This document shows, one piece after another, positions 22,654 to 31,775 of a stretch of DNA of 32,000 nucleotides. Position 1 is the first letter of the stretch; the number at the start of each line of letters is the position of its first letter. Under the pieces are notes generated by a model. That model was not told the origin of the DNA, did not search any database, and saw only the letters and a program-made list of their open reading frames with translations. Source of the stretch: an uncultured archaeon (GTDB lineage Archaea; Asgardarchaeota; Jordiarchaeia; Jordiarchaeales; Jordiarchaeaceae); NCBI GenBank assembly GCA_964510585.1, contig CAZECW010000173.1, positions 36,256 through 68,255 of the forward strand, given 5' to 3'. The position numbers were made by a program, and so were the translations under genes.

Positions 22654-23883
22654 GTGTTATTCATGAAAATCAAGACGGATTTACTGATTGTGGGAGCAGG
22701 CCCCGGCGGCACCGCTACCGCTATATCTGCCCTTAAAAAGGGAGGAAAGGTCTTAATTTTAGATCGTAAAATGCATGTAGGCATCCCGGTGCATTGCGGA
22801 GAGGCTATAGGGAAAACGGGGCCAGGAATTGCGGAAATCGAAATACCTCGAAATGCTATCGTTAATCCCATTCGCGGATTTCGTATCTATAGCCCTAATC
22901 TGACTCGGGTGGACTACGCTAAACCTGAACCCGATGGATATATACTTGATCGCCGTGTGTTTGACAAAGAACTCCTTGCTAAAGCTTGTGAAAATGGCGC
23001 CGAAGCCCTGTTAGGGTCAAATGTCACTCAATTAATCTACAAAGATCAGCAAATCAGAGGAGTAGTAGCTCGAAGACTCGGAGAAAAAATCGAAATCGAA
23101 GCCCAAGTAGTCGTGGGTGCAGATGGAGTAAACAGTACAATAGCCAAACTTTCCGGTCTCAGGAAAAACATTAAACTCAAAGATATAGAAACCTGCGCCC
23201 AATACGAAATGGTTAACGTAAAAATCGATGATACAGATCTTCTTGAATTCTACTTGGGAAAACAGATATCACCTAGAGGCTATGTTTGGGTATTTCCTAA
23301 GAACGAAAAACGCGCCAACATAGGACTAGGAATCGGAGGAGGAATGGGAGAAAAAACCGCATTAGAATATCTCCAAGACTTCATAAAACATAATCCTCGA
23401 GGAAAAGAAATCTGCAAAAACGCTAAAATTATAGAATTTCGAGTGGGAGCATTACCTATGGGAGGCCCCAATCCCAAGAACGTTTTAGACAATCTCATTC
23501 TGGTAGGAGATGCTGCAGGTCAGGTCCACCCAATTACGGGAGGCGGTATGGGTTATGCTATAGTTTGCGGAAGCATAGCTGGAGAGGTAGCAGTGGAAGC
23601 CATCACCGAGGGGGATACAAGCGAAGAAGCTCTCACACTATACGAAAAAAGATGGCGAGAAAAATATGGAAGAGAATTCGAACAAATGCTTAAACTCCAA
23701 AAACTACTTGCAGAAGCCGAAGATACTTTACTAGACAAGCTTGCCCAACTGCTCACTGGACAGAACATAGTAGAACTAACCGCCGGAAAAAAAATTGGTG
23801 TCTTTCTAAAAGCCGCGGCGAAAGGTGACCGACAGCTCCTGAATCTCCTCGATCAACTCAGACATCTACAACTAGTCCAATAA
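22654..23883 (+). CDS. Geranylgeranyl reductase family flavoprotein (DGGGPL reductase-like)
   Basis: Motifs VGAGPGG, CGEAI, LDRRVFDK, VVGADG, PRGYVWVFP, VGDAAGQVHPITGGG and WRE. An upstream ferredoxin fits known archaeal GGR electron donors. Confidence 0.9.
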   Translation: MLFMKIKTDLLIVGAGPGGTATAISALKKGGKVLILDRKMHVGIPVHCGEAIGKTGPGIAEIEIPRNAIVNPIRGFRIYSPNLTRVDYAKPEPDGYILDRRVFDKELLAKACENGAEALLGSNVTQLIYKDQQIRGVVARRLGEKIEIEAQVVVGADGVNSTIAKLSGLRKNIKLKDIETCAQYEMVNVKIDDTDLLEFYLGKQISPRGYVWVFPKNEKRANIGLGIGGGMGEKTALEYLQDFIKHNPRGKEICKNAKIIEFRVGALPMGGPNPKNVLDNLILVGDAAGQVHPITGGGMGYAIVCGSIAGEVAVEAITEGDTSEEALTLYEKRWREKYGREFEQMLKLQKLLAEAEDTLLDKLAQLLTGQNIVELTAGKKIGVFLKAAAKGDRQLLNLLDQLRHLQLVQ

Positions 23884-24863: not shown

Positions 24864-27125
24864 ATGGATGTCAATGAGGCTATTTTGCATTTTATGAAAA
24901 AATTTGACTTGACAGATGACGAGATTAAAGCTTACTTGGCTGTCTTGGGTGCGGGGGGTTTAGCTTTGGGTGATGTTTCTACTCTGACCGGATTACCTGT
25001 AGATGTATGTAAAACTATCTTGGATCGCCTAGTGGAATCACGTTTTGTGCGTCGAGTGCCGGGAGAGGTGGATGGTTTTGTACCTTTGAATCCTTTTTTG
25101 GCCGGGTTTTTGATTGTTTATGAGGATTTGAGTCACTTGTTAGAGGAGTTACAGAAGGTTGCAAGAACTAGGTTTGAAGAGCTTAGCAAAAAGTTAGAAG
25201 ACGGTAAACTTTTATCGGTGGAGGAGCTTTCCCGTTTGACAAGTAGCCGTGTGGAAACTTTTCGGTCTTTTGTGGAGGAATTTACTAAACTCATGAGTTC
25301 TAACTTTGAGAGAAGTGCAGATGCCTTTAGGGATTTGAGTGTTTCTGTGGAGGAGGCAATCCGCTCTTTGCTTTCCACGAGTTTTGTTGATTTTAGTGAT
25401 GTAGAGCGTTTTGAGGAGAGGAAGAGCTTCAGTCTTTCGGATCTTACCTCGGAGTTTGTTTCGGGCATAGAGCAGGATATGGTGTCTTTAGAGAATCTGG
25501 CCAGCAAAACCTTTTCTGCATATACCAAGGAGATCCGTGAGCGCCTAGATATAATTAAGCTACATTTCATTACCACTTTGAACGAACACCGGTCGAAACA
25601 TGAGAAGAATAGCTTGGAGTTGGATAGTAAGATTAGGACAACTGTGGATGAGAATTTGAACGTTTTGAAGAGTTTCATTGAACATTTGGAATCCGATGTG
25701 TTTGAGATACTTAAAATTATTTTGGAGATAGTAGGGGAAAAAGTGGAGTCCTTTAAGGCAAAGTATTTAGAGGCTATGACTGGTTTGCTCAACCATTACC
25801 TAGATGCTTTAAACTCATTTGAGCCTCGGGTGAAAGGTATTATTAGTGGATTGGAGAGTATTTCTCAAGATTTAGCTGGCTCAACCTCTATTCTATCATC
25901 GCGTAGAAAGGCTTTCACCAACGTAGTTTTGAAAGGCGACGCATTCCTAGAAGATTTGAATGAGAAAACACAGAAAATTTACGAGACTGCTAAGGGTTTG
26001 AGCGCCGACTATCAAAGCGTGGTTTCCGAACAGATAGTTACCGCGCAGGAGATTACAGACCAGATAACCAAGAGTTTATCCACCTTTGTGGACGAAAAAG
26101 CCACTCTGGTGAGGGAAGAGGTTAACAAAGTGCAGAACAAATTCAGGGAGAAGATAACACCTACAAGCTCCCTCATAGAATCCAAAATTTCCAACGCTGT
26201 TACAGAAGTCATTAAAAACAACAATGAAGACTGCGAAAACTTATGTACCCAACTTGGAAAGGATATCGGTAACTATATAGAAAACGCTTTTAAAAATTTT
26301 AGCGAAGCCCTAACCACATTCATAAACGGTTCAAGCGAACTATTCTCAACGTACAAAGATAACATCAAAAACAGAATAAAACTCCTAGAGTACAGCGTAA
26401 TTCACCTCCAGAGAAGGATAGCTCAAATGCTACAAACCAACGCCTTCGAATATGATAAAATGACTGAAGAACTTTACAACAACCTAGACAAAACCATAAA
26501 CCAAAAAGTAGGAGCACACATACAAGAGCTGGGTCCCTTCGAAGAAAAAATCGCCTACACCATATCCAAAAGCTACACCGACGCCAAAGATGTTCTCGAT
26601 AAAAACTTCCATGATCTAATCGAAAAATTCTCAAGCATTACTACTCATATAGAAAAGAAAGAAGAAATCCTAAAAAAAATTTGGGAAACATCATACAGCC
26701 TATTCGACAAGGATATAAAGACTTGGCCCCTAATAGGCGAAAAGGCAATCATAGCCCACACCAAATCCATAATTAGAAAAACCAAGAAAAACATAACCAT
26801 AATTTCCCCAGAACTCATCCCCGAAATCCTTGAAGAACTACTAAACATTAGAAACTTCAAAGCCACCATCATCTCAAACATCGATTTCAAGGTTTTCGAG
26901 TCAGTAATAAAACACTTCCAAAGACAGGGAAACGTAAAATTCCTACACTACCCCAATAAAGACCTATGGTGTGTGTTGAGAGACAGAGACGAAACCATTT
27001 TTGCGCCTGTAACCACCAAAGAGGAAGCCTACGCAATAGTATCAGAACAAGACGGATACATAAATTTCACACAAGAACAAATTATACCCATGGTTCTATC
27101 TAAAAGCAAAGAAGTAAAAGTTTAG
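24864..27125 (+). CDS. TrmB-like regulator with an N-terminal wHTH, a very long helical/coiled-coil insert and a C-terminal TrmB-effector-like domain
   Basis: The N-terminus FDLTDDEIKAYLAVLGAGG...TILDRLVESRFV...FVPLNP fits a TrmB HTH. About 550 aa of amphipathic helix follow. The C-terminus is WPLIGEKAIIAH...IRKTKKNITIISP...LWCVLRDRDETIFAP. Confidence 0.75.
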   Translation: MDVNEAILHFMKKFDLTDDEIKAYLAVLGAGGLALGDVSTLTGLPVDVCKTILDRLVESRFVRRVPGEVDGFVPLNPFLAGFLIVYEDLSHLLEELQKVARTRFEELSKKLEDGKLLSVEELSRLTSSRVETFRSFVEEFTKLMSSNFERSADAFRDLSVSVEEAIRSLLSTSFVDFSDVERFEERKSFSLSDLTSEFVSGIEQDMVSLENLASKTFSAYTKEIRERLDIIKLHFITTLNEHRSKHEKNSLELDSKIRTTVDENLNVLKSFIEHLESDVFEILKIILEIVGEKVESFKAKYLEAMTGLLNHYLDALNSFEPRVKGIISGLESISQDLAGSTSILSSRRKAFTNVVLKGDAFLEDLNEKTQKIYETAKGLSADYQSVVSEQIVTAQEITDQITKSLSTFVDEKATLVREEVNKVQNKFREKITPTSSLIESKISNAVTEVIKNNNEDCENLCTQLGKDIGNYIENAFKNFSEALTTFINGSSELFSTYKDNIKNRIKLLEYSVIHLQRRIAQMLQTNAFEYDKMTEELYNNLDKTINQKVGAHIQELGPFEEKIAYTISKSYTDAKDVLDKNFHDLIEKFSSITTHIEKKEEILKKIWETSYSLFDKDIKTWPLIGEKAIIAHTKSIIRKTKKNITIISPELIPEILEELLNIRNFKATIISNIDFKVFESVIKHFQRQGNVKFLHYPNKDLWCVLRDRDETIFAPVTTKEEAYAIVSEQDGYINFTQEQIIPMVLSKSKEVKV

Positions 27126-27367
27126 CAACCATACCCAAAAAATAATTCCAGAAAATATTTATTCCCACTTCCCAAACCTTTGGTCATTACATATTTTTAT
27201 AAAATTTGCAAACGGTGGGAGTAGGTACTAACCTTCATCAAACATAATCGGGCAGAGCCTATAAATTCCAGAAATGTATCGTTTAATAATTGTTTAGGAT
27301 ATGAAAATAAAAATATTCAAAGAGTACTGAAACTACATTCATTACCCTAATTTTTCACTTCCCTAAA

Positions 27368-27381
27368 CGTCCCGTGGGACG
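27368..27381. promoter_or_regulatory. GC-rich palindrome CGTCCC-GT-GGGACG next to an AT-rich tract
   Basis: Perfect 6-bp arms with a 2-nt spacer, immediately followed by about 100 nt of almost pure A/T. Confidence 0.4.
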
Positions 27382-27511
27382 ACGCTTAAAAATATAAATA
27401 ATATATATTTTTTAAAAAATATTGTAAAATTACGATATTCTATATGATTCTTAGGAAAAATTTATAAATAAATCTTGAAATACCTACAGTTCGTAGAAAG
27501 ATTGGATTTAA

Positions 27512-27595
27512 GCTTACCTCCCTCTCTCCCTCCAAAATCCCCCCCTCCTTAACGAGGGGGGGTTAAAATCTTATGCTTACTCCCTCTCTCCCTCC
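27512..27595. repeat. Polypyrimidine direct repeats flanking a C7/G7 hairpin
   Basis: GCTTACCTCCCTCTCTCCCTCC (27512-27533) and GCTTACTCCCTCTCTCCCTCC (27575-27595) flank CCCCCCCTC-cttaac-GAGGGGGGG (27539-27562). Confidence 0.8.
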
Positions 27596-27686
27596 TCCCT
27601 TGTCTACTATGCTAGGACTTTTTTTAAAGAGAATTCGGGTTTTAGCCTTAAAGGGGGTTTGGGCCAGTACTTTTTAGTAGTGACTT

Positions 27687-28574
27687 TCAGAATGGGGAGT
27701 TAGCATAATTTTTTATTAGTGCTCCTTGATAGATTGCGTCTAGGAAGTTTTCCATTGTGGGTTCCCATTCTAGGGCGATTATGGGTTTAGTTTTTGGCGA
27801 GTATATTTGTGTGCCTTGGATGCTTGCGCGGCAGCATCTTACTATGTAGAAGTCGTTCTTAGTGGTTTCCTTTCTTGCATAGTGTGTTGGGCATATGTCT
27901 ATTTTTTGCATGGGGATTTTTGGGTTTAATTCTTTTATAGTTTCGAAGGTTACTGGGCAGCCTATTATGGTTATTGGTTGGTTTAGATTTGTTATTTTTT
28001 GGGCATCTGCGTCTAAGAATATGAATTTTTTTCCGGTGCTAGCACTGCATGGAAAAACTATGGGGTAATTTTTTGAGGGGATTTCTTTGAGAATGTCTAT
28101 TGTTTTTATTTGGAATTTAGTTTCTTTGCGTACTAGTCCTTGTTTTTGTGCTTTTTGGACTTGGTCTTGTAGTTTGGCTGGTGGAGGGATGATGTCAATT
28201 ATTCCCACCTTAATGTTGGGAGGTTCAAATAGTGCGAGACCTATGTGTTCGAATTTGGATTTGAAGACTACACTTCTTGTTTCTTTTTTTAGATGCTTTG
28301 TGGCGTTTTTAAGTATCTCGATTTTTTCTGTAGGGTCAATGTCGGAAAAATCCAATGTTAACGTTTGGTTTTCGTCGCTTAGTTGGATATAGCTGGTTAT
28401 AGTTCTCATGAGGCTGTTGCCCGTAGTTTTGATTTGGTATACGGATAGGCCTGTGGTTGACTGGATTATGAGATATTTTGTGGTGTGAAATACATTTCTT
28501 CCTTTTAGAATTGGTTTGTTTTCGTGTTTAGTTTTTATAACGTTTACTTGTTGAGGGTGGGGTATTCTTGGCAT
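27687..28574 (-). CDS. Conserved-looking Cys-motif protein of unknown function, co-transcribed with a radical SAM gene
   Basis: 295 aa, ATG after GGTGA, 21 nt downstream of the radical SAM stop. Motifs VFHTTKYLI, FEH, DIIPP, FPCSAS, IGCP, ICP, RCC and EW resemble an uncharacterised family I recall from methanogens (not verified). Confidence 0.7.
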   Translation of the reverse strand: MPRIPHPQQVNVIKTKHENKPILKGRNVFHTTKYLIIQSTTGLSVYQIKTTGNSLMRTITSYIQLSDENQTLTLDFSDIDPTEKIEILKNATKHLKKETRSVVFKSKFEHIGLALFEPPNIKVGIIDIIPPPAKLQDQVQKAQKQGLVRKETKFQIKTIDILKEIPSKNYPIVFPCSASTGKKFIFLDADAQKITNLNQPITIIGCPVTFETIKELNPKIPMQKIDICPTHYARKETTKNDFYIVRCCRASIQGTQIYSPKTKPIIALEWEPTMENFLDAIYQGALIKNYANSPF

Positions 28575-28595
28575 GTTTTGGTCACCATTTAATTT

Positions 28596-29684
28596 TTAGA
28601 GGTCTTTTTGGGGAACTATGTCGCAGCCTGTACATTTGAGGCACATAGTTTTGAATTTGTTTACGTCTAGACCTTTTTCCTTTAGGATCTGTTTGTGTTT
28701 TGTTGCATGTTTTATTAGTCTTTGGGCGGTGGGTCGTTGTGCCTTATTGTTTAGTGTTTGTTGCAATTGTTGCTTTATTAGAGGATTTAAGTTTAGGGGC
28801 CTTAGGGATGCGATCACTCCCCAGTGTGCTAATGTTTCTGCTCCTTGGTCTATTGTTTCTTCTTTTTCCCCAAGTCCTATTATGATGTTTGAGCAGACGC
28901 AGTTTTCTCCAAAGACTTTTGCGGCATATTTGACCATTTTTAGGTTGTTTTGATAGTTGAATTCGCTACAAACTTTAGAGAAGATTTGGGGATCAAAGCT
29001 CTCAACGTTTATTTTTATTTCGTCTGCTCCAGCGTCATATAGCATATCTATGTGTTTTTCTTCTTCGACGTAGGGTTCAACTCCTATGGGTAGTCTATCC
29101 CCAAATTCTCGGCGGAGGGCTTCCACCACCTGGCACATGTGTTTTACGCTTTCGGTAGGTGTGGAAAAAACTCCTGTGGTGAGTGCAACAGCCGTTAAAC
29201 CCTTATTTGCCACCCGTTTCACGATTCTGGTCACCACTTGGGGCTGGAGGGTTCTATGAGTGATGTGAGATTGTATTAAGGGAGTTGCGCAAAATTTGCA
29301 GTGGTATTTGCAGTTTGAATCTAGATTGAGGAATGCTTGTTCTGGACAATGGAGGAGGCTTTCTACCTGCTTTGCAGGAAGCCAGTCCACCCCATCCTTC
29401 TTTATGACTTTACGTTTGGCGTCGTAAGTGTAGGGCGTTTCTGACTGTTTCTCTGTAAGAGTAAGACGCACTAATCTCTCTTGGCCTAACCTTAGAAAGA
29501 TAGAATTTTGGCCTGTGCTTGGACCTGCGGTGGAGCGATCTATGAGGAAGGGAAGCTCTTTAACCTCCTTTACAAAGATCGTTCCTTTTTCTAGGAGTTC
29601 CGCTTTCATTATAGTTATTTTTGGTATTTCCTCCTGCACCTGGAAACCCTCATATTTATATTGAAAAAATGTTTTGAGTACCAA
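28596..29684 (-). CDS. Radical SAM protein, biotin-synthase-related (COG2516/LipS2-like); true start may be internal (e.g. ATG at 29609)
   Basis: CKYHCKFC (CxxxCxxC), STAGP, HCPEQA, LTTGV, IKINVES, SNIIIGLGE and a C-terminal TMCLKCTGCD. Confidence 0.85.
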   Translation of the reverse strand: MVLKTFFQYKYEGFQVQEEIPKITIMKAELLEKGTIFVKEVKELPFLIDRSTAGPSTGQNSIFLRLGQERLVRLTLTEKQSETPYTYDAKRKVIKKDGVDWLPAKQVESLLHCPEQAFLNLDSNCKYHCKFCATPLIQSHITHRTLQPQVVTRIVKRVANKGLTAVALTTGVFSTPTESVKHMCQVVEALRREFGDRLPIGVEPYVEEEKHIDMLYDAGADEIKINVESFDPQIFSKVCSEFNYQNNLKMVKYAAKVFGENCVCSNIIIGLGEKEETIDQGAETLAHWGVIASLRPLNLNPLIKQQLQQTLNNKAQRPTAQRLIKHATKHKQILKEKGLDVNKFKTMCLKCTGCDIVPQKDL

Positions 29685-29707
29685 AGAAGTTCTCTATGTG
29701 AACAGAA

Positions 29708-30754
29708 GTGAAAGAACAGAAAAATCTTGCGGCGATTCTAGACCAAGCATTGGATAGAAAAATCACCTTTCAGGAAGCGCAAAGCCTTTTAGAAGTTGAG
29801 GGTGAAAATTTCGACAAACTATTGAAAGTGGCGCGAATAGTAACTGATCGGGAAAAGGGGCGCATTCTACACGTTTATTATCCTTCACGATTGTTCCCCT
29901 CCATATCCGTAACGGGAAGAAACTGTGAATTGAAATGTGCACACTGCAATCGCCACTATCTTCAACATATGATACCCGCTTCGACTCCTGATAGGCTTTA
30001 CCAAGTGTGCCTCGATTTGCACCATAAGGGGGCGGTGGGTTGTTTGATAAGTGGGGGAAGCACCATCCAAGGATACATTCCACTTGAAACATACTTAGAT
30101 GCAATTAGGCGCGTGAAGGAAAATACTGATCTCATTTTGAATGTTCATACAGGGTTGTTGAGTTGGGATTTGGCGGTAGGGTTAGCTAAGTCTAATATTG
30201 ATGTCGCTTCAATTGATGTAGTTGGCGATAATGAAACCATAACTAAAGTTTACGGATTAAATAAAACGGTTGAGGATTATGAGAAGGCTCTTTACACTCA
30301 TTTGCAGGCAGGAATCAGACATGTGGTTCCGCATATTTGCGTGGGTTTAAACTTTGGGAGGATAGGGGGAGAAATCAGGGCTCTGGAAATAATAAGAAGA
30401 GTGGGTACGGAATTGTTGATTTTTATTACAATTATTCCCACGAGAGGTACTCTTATGGAGAATGTTTCTCCTCCCAGCGTGGAGGCAGTGGTAAAGGTGA
30501 TTGCCATTGCACGGTTAATGTTTAGAGACGCATCCATATCCTTGGGATGTATGCGTCCCGGTGGCCTTCGTAGGAGAAGGCTGGATCATTTGGCTTTGTA
30601 TGTAGTTGATAGAATGGCAGTCCCTACACCTAGCACCTTAAGAGAAGCCGAAAATATGGGTCTAAAAATTGAAAGATATCCCTCTTGTTGTGCGTTGCCA
30701 AGTGAATTTGAATTTAAAATAAGAAACAAGCTTTCGAAGGGAAACCAGTTTTAG
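29708..30754 (+). CDS. Radical SAM protein, LipS1-type archaeal lipoyl synthase subunit (COG1856-like)
   Basis: SISVTGRNCELKCAHC, LISGG, HTG, VPHICVGL, IPTRGT, then LGCMRP and a C-terminal SCC, which are the GC(M/A)R and CC motifs I recall for Thermococcus LipS1. Overlaps the lipoate ligase stop by 4 nt. Confidence 0.78.
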   Translation: MKEQKNLAAILDQALDRKITFQEAQSLLEVEGENFDKLLKVARIVTDREKGRILHVYYPSRLFPSISVTGRNCELKCAHCNRHYLQHMIPASTPDRLYQVCLDLHHKGAVGCLISGGSTIQGYIPLETYLDAIRRVKENTDLILNVHTGLLSWDLAVGLAKSNIDVASIDVVGDNETITKVYGLNKTVEDYEKALYTHLQAGIRHVVPHICVGLNFGRIGGEIRALEIIRRVGTELLIFITIIPTRGTLMENVSPPSVEAVVKVIAIARLMFRDASISLGCMRPGGLRRRRLDHLALYVVDRMAVPTPSTLREAENMGLKIERYPSCCALPSEFEFKIRNKLSKGNQF

Positions 30755-31518
30755 CGTAAAAAGTTCCATTCTCTGGTTGAGTACTTTTCAGTGACGAGTT
30801 TACGAGTCAACTTTTTTTCGTATTCTGTGAGTTCTCCGGATACTAATTCTATGTCCAGAGCCTTTTCAAATCCTTTCTTTAAGATATTTTTAATGGCTTC
30901 TATGTCTGGCTTCTTCTTCAATGCTGTTTCAAGATTGATTACTCTTTCTTCAATGGATTTAGCGACTTTATCGCTCATCTTTTCTTTGGACACTTTTAAT
31001 ACTTTTGACATGGTTTTTATGTCTGTTTTTATGAGAAGTGTTCCGTGATGTAGTACCACCTTTTTCCTTCTAGTCTGGGAGCTTCCACTAATCTTTTTCC
31101 CATCAACCAGAATATCGTTAACAGGCTTGAATGACGCGTTTAATCCCAACATCTTTAGACTTTCCACAACTCCCCGACAAAGTACCTCATAGGACTTTAG
31201 AATATCTTGGGGTACTTTCTTATTATTCTCATGTACAACAATATTATATGTGAGATTATCTTTATCTGAGTAAATTGCGCCCCCACCGGTTATTCTCCGG
31301 GAAATGTCTACACCTAATCTTTTGCACTCTTCAACATCCACCACATTTTCTACTGCTTGAAAGTAACCAATGGAACATGCAGGAGGATCCCTCTGGTATA
31401 GAAAGAGCGTATCAGGAACGAGATTTTTTGAGCGTGCTATAAGAATCGCTTCACCTACCGCACCACTGGTAGGAGGATCAATTACCCCTAAATCCAAAAA
31501 GCGCCAGACTTCCCTCAA
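30751..31518 (-). CDS. lplA: Lipoate-protein ligase/octanoyltransferase, catalytic domain only (no LplB domain)
   Basis: Motifs WRFLD, TLFLY, CSIGYFQ, RRITGGGAIYSD, NDILVDGKKISGSSQ, HHGTLL and YSTREWN. TTG at 31518 after AGGTG is preferred over the track start at 31551. Confidence 0.9.
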   Translation of the reverse strand: MREVWRFLDLGVIDPPTSGAVGEAILIARSKNLVPDTLFLYQRDPPACSIGYFQAVENVVDVEECKRLGVDISRRITGGGAIYSDKDNLTYNIVVHENNKKVPQDILKSYEVLCRGVVESLKMLGLNASFKPVNDILVDGKKISGSSQTRRKKVVLHHGTLLIKTDIKTMSKVLKVSKEKMSDKVAKSIEERVINLETALKKKPDIEAIKNILKKGFEKALDIELVSGELTEYEKKLTRKLVTEKYSTREWNFLR

Positions 31519-31775
31519 TTCAAACACCTTACTAAAATACACAATCCACACTCAGATAAACTTCAAATATAAACTAGATTTAAGATTAACCATTAAACAG
31601 CATACGTCCAAAATTTTTCTATAAATATTCTATTTATGCAAAGGATAGGGTATTTAGTTAAAATAGTTTTAATTATTGCTAGTTATGTCTATTGGGTAAG
31701 GAGGTGTGGTTTGCAAGTTTTGCTTTAAAAAGCTAACAAAAAAATAATAGGAGTTATCAGCCGGTAGTACGAATT

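Follow-up and report, generated by a model that had tools for sequence, protein, structure and literature searches.

LipS1, a radical S-adenosylmethionine (SAM) enzyme, acts on the 8-mercaptooctanoyl group, into which it introduces sulfur at C6. According to a 2026 review, the routes to the lipoyl cofactor are LipA and LipS1/LipS2 only (PMC13692748), and the closest described relative of the locus considered here is the LipS1/LipS2 system of Thermococcus kodakarensis (TK2109/TK2248; PMC9585515), with which we group the bacterial sLpl(AB)-LipS1/S2 system (PMC10332631). The locus lies in a 32,000-nucleotide window (the whole stretch of DNA that was analysed, and to which positions refer) of a 3.78-Mb, 96%-complete metagenome-assembled genome (MAG) from the Asgard order Jordarchaeales. 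In it, the genes for LipS1 and an LplA-type ligase are packed together with those for another radical SAM enzyme, here designated rSAM-X, and for a Cys-rich protein of the DUF7714 family. We lean, with slightly better than even confidence, towards the view that these genes encode a variant, so far undescribed, of two-enzyme lipoyl synthase, in which a distinct radical SAM enzyme related to LipS2 and a dedicated Fe-S helper, the DUF7714 protein, would supply the step that LipS1 requires.

The four genes occupy positions 27687–31551, in the sequence order DUF7714, rSAM-X, LipS1 and LplA ligase. The gene for the DUF7714/XcbA-like protein (27687–28574, minus strand; 295 amino acids) lies 21 nt downstream of that for rSAM-X (28596–29639, minus strand; Pfam Radical_SAM). 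The rSAM-X and LipS1 (29708–30754, plus strand; 348 amino acids) genes are arranged head to head, 68 nt apart (29640–29707), and LipS1 is convergent with the lipoate/octanoate-protein ligase gene (30751–31551, minus strand), the two 3' ends overlapping by 4 nt. The ligase, a 266-amino-acid open reading frame, consists of the catalytic domain only. The longest open reading frame for rSAM-X extends to 29684, and a GTG at 29639 is the probable start, with which the protein would have 347 amino acids, as in homologues. Read from the sequence, the 68-nt spacer contains an A/T-rich palindromic TATA-like element at approximately 29650–29665 and is probably a bidirectional promoter shared by rSAM-X/DUF7714 and LipS1. 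DNA of the window was also found in hot-spring metagenomes. In a metatranscriptome library, five short contigs, 95–99% alike, cover DUF7714 and rSAM-X only; one of them (28461–28664) spans the junction between the two genes and another ends at 29651. As contigs only, with DNA carry-over possible, these are weakly compatible with co-transcription of rSAM-X and DUF7714, and the missing cover over LipS1 and LplA carries no information.

The identities of LipS1 and of the ligase were clear from profile comparisons. LipS1 scored 277.3 bits against the NCBIfam equivalog model (NF053742; cut-off 230) over model positions 1–268, and contains the motifs CELKCAHC, GCMR and SCC; the CX3CX2C motif, G280-C281-M-R283 and C327-C328 were invariant across 21 LipS1 sequences. 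The ligase matched PF21948 at 184.6 bits (gathering cut-off 27) and the NCBIfam LplA_large 'exception' model at 233.6 bits, which is under the cut-off of 480. Given that LipS1 accepts the 8-mercaptooctanoyl substrate only (PMC9585515), a genome with LipS1 alone needs a partner that thiolates C8, and rSAM-X is the sole candidate that these data offer for such genomes.

The distribution of the three radical SAM enzymes was compared in 201 Thermoplasmata genomes of at least 90% completeness and in 151 Asgard genomes, including 11 of Jordarchaeales. Among the Thermoplasmata, rSAM-X was found in 59 genomes, LipS1 in 79 and LipS2 in 47. LipS2 was present in all 42 genomes with LipS1 and without rSAM-X, compared with only 4 of the 37 that have both LipS1 and rSAM-X, the remaining 33 being without it. 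Asgard genomes with LipS1 and without rSAM-X contained LipS2 in 97 of 100 cases; the three exceptions are MAGs of 85–96% completeness, and three other genomes hold LipS2 without LipS1, converse cases that suggest that assembly gaps arise at about the same rate as the exceptions. With both samples taken together (352 genomes), LipS2 accompanied LipS1 in 139 of 142 genomes without rSAM-X and in 9 of 45 with it, and rSAM-X was present in 36 of the 39 genomes that keep LipS1 but lack LipS2. In a sample of 151 Bathyarchaeia genomes, rSAM-X was found in three, those already known, which are too few for statistics.

The Jordarchaeales genomes show the same pattern at the level of modules, with rSAM-X-linked LipS1 and LipS2-linked LipS1 behaving as two independent units. 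Both modules were present in the five genomes examined for all three genes. The rSAM-X module occurs alone in three genomes, namely G246 (a closed 3.6-Mb chromosome), G237 (99% complete) and G263 (94%), and the LipS2 module occurs alone, without rSAM-X, in G226 (92%). The closed genome G246 encodes five GcvH proteins, LipS1 and LplA, with neither LipS2 nor LipA found in it.

In a LipS1 tree, the rSAM-X-linked sequences of Jordarchaeales form a clade (support of 99) that is nested among Asgard LipS1 sequences adjoining canonical LipS2 (Shimodaira–Hasegawa-like approximate likelihood ratio, 90). By this phylogeny, rSAM-X-linked LipS1 is orthologous to the Asgard LipS1 proteins that elsewhere adjoin canonical LipS2, and the nesting suggests that LipS2 was displaced in place. 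An rSAM-X-linked LipS1 of Bathyarchaeia groups apart from the Jordarchaeales clade, and its placement elsewhere in the tree indicates that the link between rSAM-X and LipS1 arose more than once. A single cross-phylum clade of rSAM-X-linked LipS1 was therefore rejected, the link having arisen at least two times; the LipS1 sequences of Thermoplasmata track their own lineages.

Gene order was conserved in two phyla; synteny of the pair with lplA and lipS1 had been suggested as a check in an earlier note made from the window's letters and open reading frames. The genes for LplA, LipS1, rSAM-X and DUF7714 are adjacent in all eight Jordarchaeales loci, in two arrangements, and those for rSAM-X, DUF7714 and LplA form one operon with overlapping genes in all four Bathyarchaeia loci, in one of which LipS1 is located 3.6 kb away. 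Given that the arrangement recurs in both groups, the grouping of these genes is not due to chance.

The rSAM-X protein carries the motif CKYHCKFC and the C-terminal end TMCLKCTGCD. At E ≤ 1e-10, a search yielded 760 homologues, which belong to Jordarchaeia, Bathyarchaeia, Thermoplasmata/Methanomassiliicoccales and one Thorarchaeote. Features invariant in 74 rSAM-X sequences were the N-terminal domain KKAELL...STAGPGAG, CX3CX2C (C125/C129/C132), C239 and the C-terminal TMCxxCxxC...P..D, the cysteines of which are C348/C351/C354; a beta-rich N-terminal domain spans approximately residues 20–115. Against the NCBIfam LipS2 model (NF053743), rSAM-X reached 65 bits (cut-off 270), over model positions 20–199 only, and weak matches of similar size were obtained with 'variant_rSAM', MSMEG_0568 (TIGR04043; 71.3 bits, cut-off 303.7), BioB and LipA. 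Profile alignment with hhalign related rSAM-X to the MSMEG_0568 type at 100% probability (E 4.6e-47, 319 columns, full length at both ends), to LipS2 at 99.4% (E 1.1e-21, 234 columns) and to LipS1 at 93.6% (E 2e-7, 168 columns); LipS2 and LipS1 aligned with each other at 97.1% (E 5.9e-11, 198 columns). On these scores, rSAM-X is nearer to LipS2 than to LipS1, by a wide margin, and is not a member of the LipS2 family but a clear distant homologue of it.

The C-terminal region was compared with that of LipS2 proteins, whose auxiliary-cluster ligands have been defined (PMC9585515). The LipS2 sequences that we fetched end in T[SQR]GCxGCNRP or in a variant, GCPGKTLDVACNRP. The LipS2 motif T-x-G-C-x-x-C-(N/D)-R-P is not present in rSAM-X; in the hhalign alignment, C351 and C354 fall on the auxiliary-cluster GCxxC, and NRP is absent. 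The third auxiliary ligand of LipS2, C85 in the T. kodakarensis protein, is located approximately 39 residues past CX3CX2C (PMC9585515), and the corresponding column in rSAM-X is Ala167, which is nearly invariant. An extra cysteine, C348, lies three residues upstream of C351, and it and C239 are possible stand-ins for the third ligand. From this alignment, rSAM-X plausibly keeps an auxiliary-cluster site at a place equivalent to that in LipS2. The four packed genes with their motifs, the missing LipS2 signature of the second radical SAM enzyme and its three-Cys C-terminal motif at a position comparable to that in LipS2 had all been described in the earlier note, and each of these points was confirmed. 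An AlphaFold2 model of rSAM-X had a mean confidence score (pLDDT) of 93.4, and its top folds in a Foldseek search of the Protein Data Bank (PDB) were BioB, HydE and LipA. The enzyme thus resembles LipS2 in combining CX3CX2C with a BioB/LipA-like barrel, as well as in its genomic association with LipS1 and ligase, except at Thermoplasmata loci.

The DUF7714 protein matched PF24830 at 120.1 bits (cut-off 25) and the NCBIfam XcbA family (NF052538) at 65.5 bits, under the cut-off of 150. It contains PC, GC, CP and CC motifs, and C176, C206, C228, C247 and C248 were invariant in 22 homologues from three phyla. Its AlphaFold2 model (pLDDT of 90.3) gave no Foldseek match in the PDB at E ≤ 0.001, and VIA-align returned generic alpha/beta matches with Z ≤ 8.2, among which HypD (Z of 7.4 over 165 residues) offers no more than a weak lead. 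The single characterised relative of the protein is XcbA, which catalyses the last step of bacterial coenzyme M synthesis, reducing sulfoethanethioaldehyde to coenzyme M with a [2Fe-2S] cluster of −372 mV (PMC9457059). A literature search found no paper naming DUF7714. A predicted rSAM-X/DUF7714 complex had a score of 0.00, which counts neither for nor against pairing of the two proteins. DUF7714 was present in 50 of the 59 Thermoplasmata genomes with rSAM-X, and the nine without it are the same nine that hold an extra, basal LipS1-like paralogue, which may be another partner or a substitute in the rSAM-X system. The paralogues form a clade scoring approximately 200–217 bits (L124, L134, L138, L141, L143, L146, L149, L153 and L155), and seven of the nine genomes are also without LipS2.

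From the observed gene identities, homology to LipS2, synteny and pattern of presence and absence, we infer a substrate, a C8 chemistry, an auxiliary cluster and a role for the DUF7714 protein as follows. LplA would load octanoate onto GcvH-type carriers. In the place of LipS2, rSAM-X would then abstract a hydrogen from the terminal C8 by means of its radical SAM cluster, and sulfur would be donated by an auxiliary Fe-S cluster on the C-terminal CxxCxxC, perhaps together with C239. LipS1 would add the C6 sulfur. The DUF7714 protein would be an Fe-S or redox helper dedicated to rSAM-X, perhaps providing it with electrons or sulfur, or reducing a sulfur intermediate. That the Cys-rich protein supplies or regenerates the sacrificial cluster, as the earlier note proposed, is conjectural; XcbA, its one characterised relative, is a [2Fe-2S] thioaldehyde reductase.

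The window's genome itself contains further lipoate genes. Contig C212 (L001:3-2538) carries a second operon, LplA-LipS1-LipS2-like, in which the LipS2-like protein scored 212.6 bits (cut-off 270) and has the motif variant GCPGKTLDVACNRP, with an insertion relative to GCxGCNRP. LipS2 proteins of the GCPGKTLDVACNRP type are a recurrent subfamily that is always located beside its own LipS1 type. This subfamily and its LipS1 clade were seen in many Asgard genomes and in some of Thermoplasmata and Bathyarchaeia, often beside the canonical pair. The lipoyl-domain targets found comprised five GcvH-family genes, on contigs C72, C193, C137, C94 and C206 (L095–L099), one of which lies in a 303-amino-acid open frame and may be fused; no E2-type lipoyl domain (PF00364 lipoyl/biotinyl) was found across the 96%-complete genome. 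In this genome, the module would work beside the C212 operon, probably on other carriers or under other conditions.

Several observations weigh against a lipoyl synthase built on rSAM-X. With a LipS2-like operon on C212, the module here is a second system rather than a replacement. The proposal of the earlier note that rSAM-X replaces LipS2 thus fits the relatives with LipS1 and without LipS2, nearly all of which carry rSAM-X, but not the window's own genome, in which a LipS2-like gene is present and LipA was not found. By profile comparison, the nearest family of rSAM-X is the uncharacterised MSMEG_0568 group and not LipS2. Five Thermoplasmata genomes have DUF7714 near an MSMEG_0568-type paralogue, with rSAM-X absent. 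In approximately 68 Thermoplasmata loci, no lipoate genes were found near rSAM-X; in Methanomassiliicoccales, rSAM-X follows cysK-cysE-cysS instead. The association with lipS1 and lplA that the note had proposed to test held for the 23 of 23 Thermoplasmata genomes with rSAM-X and without methyl-CoM reductase, all of which have LipS1 and LplA, but it failed for 22 of the 59 Thermoplasmata genomes with rSAM-X, which have DUF7714 as well and are without LipS1, LipS2 and any LplA/LipB-family gene. All 22 of these encode methyl-CoM reductase, and no Thermoplasmata genome with rSAM-X was found to lack both methyl-CoM reductase and LipS1/LplA. The presence of the pair in 22 methanogens free of lipoylation genes means that lipoate is not its only role; alternatively, the true activity of the pair is more general and LipS1 is dependent on it. 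Lastly, the co-occurrence is clustered by phylogeny. A test of independent pairs along the LipS1 tree did not reach significance; with rSAM-X on both sides in six of the seven contrasts for LipS2 loss, this test was uninformative.

The most serious competitor, which we consider possible though distinctly less probable than the lipoyl synthase variant, is that octanoyl-protein is not itself acted on by rSAM-X and DUF7714, and that the two constitute a module for thiol formation or sulfur mobilisation in general. The pair might make a free thiolated acid, such as 8-mercaptooctanoate, to be ligated by LplA and completed by LipS1; alternatively, sulfur-inserting radical SAM enzymes might receive sulfur or clusters from it. 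In the methanogens without lipoylation, the pair would be used for some other thiol cofactor or pathway. Retention of the pair in those 22 genomes is as this explanation predicts, and the chemistry of XcbA, which turns a thioaldehyde into the coenzyme M thiol with cysteine-derived sulfur (PMC9457059), provides a precedent. In Methanomassiliicoccales, the pair brackets cysK-cysE-cysS, DUF7714 being located just upstream of this block in many Thermoplasmata loci. Partnership of DUF7714 with the MSMEG_0568-type paralogue points in the same direction, as does the Bathyarchaeia operon, which has the ligase and not LipS1. The cys block, however, also includes pyrD, pyrK, TBP and GluRS, and, with such housekeeping genes in it, may reflect inherited gene order only; we have accordingly downgraded the cys neighbourhood as a sign that cysteine is the sulfur donor. 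In addition, rSAM-X keeps the LipS2-type auxiliary-cluster Cys positions, the pair of non-methanogens is always accompanied by LipS1 and LplA (in the 23 Thermoplasmata and in all Jordarchaeales), and methanogens already own COG1900 enzymes that convert aldehydes to thiols (PMC12068725).

The cys block was followed through loci L030–L094 of Methanomassiliicoccales, where it runs pyrD-pyrK, a gene of the isopropylmalate/homocitrate-synthase family, DUF7714, TBP and cysK-cysE-cysS-rSAM-X, with cysS overlapping rSAM-X, and continues past rSAM-X with an iron-dependent repressor/FeoB, GluRS and a UbiD-like gene. A true MSMEG_0568 radical SAM gene is present on contig C25 of the window's genome (L003:1393-2475, minus strand; 356.8 bits, Cx8CxxC, C-terminal GCVRCGACS), where it and a gene resembling ADP-forming acyl-CoA synthetase overlap. 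Members of the family are widespread among the Asgard genomes sampled, and in the five Thermoplasmata the gene lies 2–11 kb from DUF7714.

A bolder proposal, and one that we regard as unlikely, is that rSAM-X and DUF7714 constitute a two-protein system of general use for turning the terminal methyl of medium-chain acyl groups into a thiol, yielding the C8 thiol of lipoate in non-methanogens and the thiol of another cofactor in Methanomassiliicoccales. If true, it would be a third kind of lipoyl synthase in non-methanogenic archaea, and the thiol made in Methanomassiliicoccales, with cysteine sulfur, would be, for example, that of the 7-mercaptoheptanoyl group of coenzyme B or that of coenzyme M.

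It is likewise improbable that the pair is unrelated to lipoate and a mere neighbour of its genes, with LipS1 genomes that lack LipS2 scavenging lipoate or using an unrecognised partner. Such an explanation is in keeping with the unlinked Thermoplasmata loci, with the 22 genomes without lipoylation genes and with a comparative signal that is not significant after allowing for phylogeny. It is countered by the adjacency to LplA, which recurs in two phyla in different gene orders, by the strictly modular presence and absence in Jordarchaeales and by the homology of rSAM-X to LipS2, and also by the finding that LipS1 without LipS2 occurs in 36 genomes with rSAM-X but in only three, all incomplete MAGs, without it.

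Least probable of all, and in our judgement very doubtful, is that LipS1 and LplA are here specialised paralogues, recruited for an acyl-thiol modification other than lipoate on a single GcvH paralogue. This could be argued from the two ligase/LipS1 sets, five GcvH genes and zero E2 lipoyl domains and from the N-terminal domain and auxiliary-cluster motif by which rSAM-X departs from LipS2. Against it, LipS1 scores above its equivalog cut-off and has canonical Asgard LipS1 proteins as orthologues. In addition, G246, G237 and G263, which have this module and no further lipoyl synthase, encode between two and five GcvH proteins, so that ordinary lipoylation in them would be left without an explanation.

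The surroundings of the module include two further genes that recur with it. An FAD oxidoreductase of the geranylgeranyl-reductase (GGR) family is encoded at 22654–23883 (plus strand; 409 amino acids), and a second Jordarchaeales family (L013/L014) has it upstream of the module too, its relative position being conserved. A GGR-like 'LipT' is part of bacterial LipS1/LipS2 clusters, and the gene in the window could equally encode a lipid-saturating enzyme. The gene at 24864–27125 (plus strand) encodes a 753-amino-acid protein with an N-terminal TrmB winged helix-turn-helix followed by a long helical middle, and the other Jordarchaeales family has a 756-amino-acid counterpart at the same site beside its lipoate module (L013:3812-6082). 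The TrmB-like and DUF7714 genes are convergent, and the 560-nt gap that separates them (27125–27687) contains no genes. Contigs from runs X11 and X15, filed as metatranscriptomic and flagged as probably DNA, diverge from the window's sequence by small indels at 27628–27675, just inside this gap.

If rSAM-X does supply LipS1 with its substrate, the module would be a third configuration of lipoyl cofactor synthesis. It would explain lipoate synthesis in at least 36 sampled archaeal genomes with LipS1 and without LipS2, among them many Methanomassiliicoccales, a closed Freyarchaeum-type genome and some Bathyarchaeia. In the searchable literature, we found nothing on a module of rSAM-X, DUF7714, LipS1 and LplA, and no paper combining Methanomassiliicoccales and lipoyl synthase. 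The radical SAM family concerned, which has several hundred members (the 760 matches above), would gain its first pathway context, as would DUF7714, the only studied member of which acts in bacterial coenzyme M synthesis. The supply of electrons or sulfur to LipS-type enzymes becomes testable with a defined helper candidate, and a second role, in sulfur/thiol metabolism, is indicated by those methanogens in which the pair is retained and lipoylation genes are absent.

In comparison with known systems, the module most resembles LipS1/LipS2. It shares with that system a LipS1 passing the equivalog model, the ligase type, a second enzyme that is a radical SAM protein of the same superfamily branch, C-terminal cysteines that fall on the auxiliary-cluster CxxC of LipS2, clustering of the genes and GcvH-type acceptors in the genome. 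It differs in that rSAM-X fails the LipS2 model and has neither TxGCxxC(N/D)RP nor the mid-sequence ligand Cys, having instead CxxCxxC and an extra N-terminal domain of approximately 95 residues, and in that rSAM-X is accompanied by a DUF7714 partner, which is absent from LipS1/LipS2 systems. The MSMEG_0568 family provides the profile closest to rSAM-X, has the N-terminal domain and C-terminal CxxCxxC in common with it, and is likewise found near a DUF7714 gene, in the five Thermoplasmata genomes; rSAM-X, however, has the standard CX3CX2C, whereas that family has Cx8CxxC, and the neighbours differ, the member on C25 adjoining the acyl-CoA synthetase-like gene. XcbA of Xanthobacter autotrophicus Py2 (PMC9457059) belongs to the DUF7714 Pfam family, is Cys-rich and forms a terminal thiol, but its similarity to the protein described here is weak, and its partners are aspartase/fumarase-type and pyridoxal-phosphate enzymes, not a radical SAM enzyme. 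BioB and LipA, both of which insert sulfur from a sacrificial auxiliary cluster, are the best structural matches of the rSAM-X model (1r30 and 5exk; Foldseek E of approximately 1e-9), whereas they are only 16–19% identical to it in sequence, have different auxiliary-cluster motifs and possess no counterpart of its N-terminal domain.

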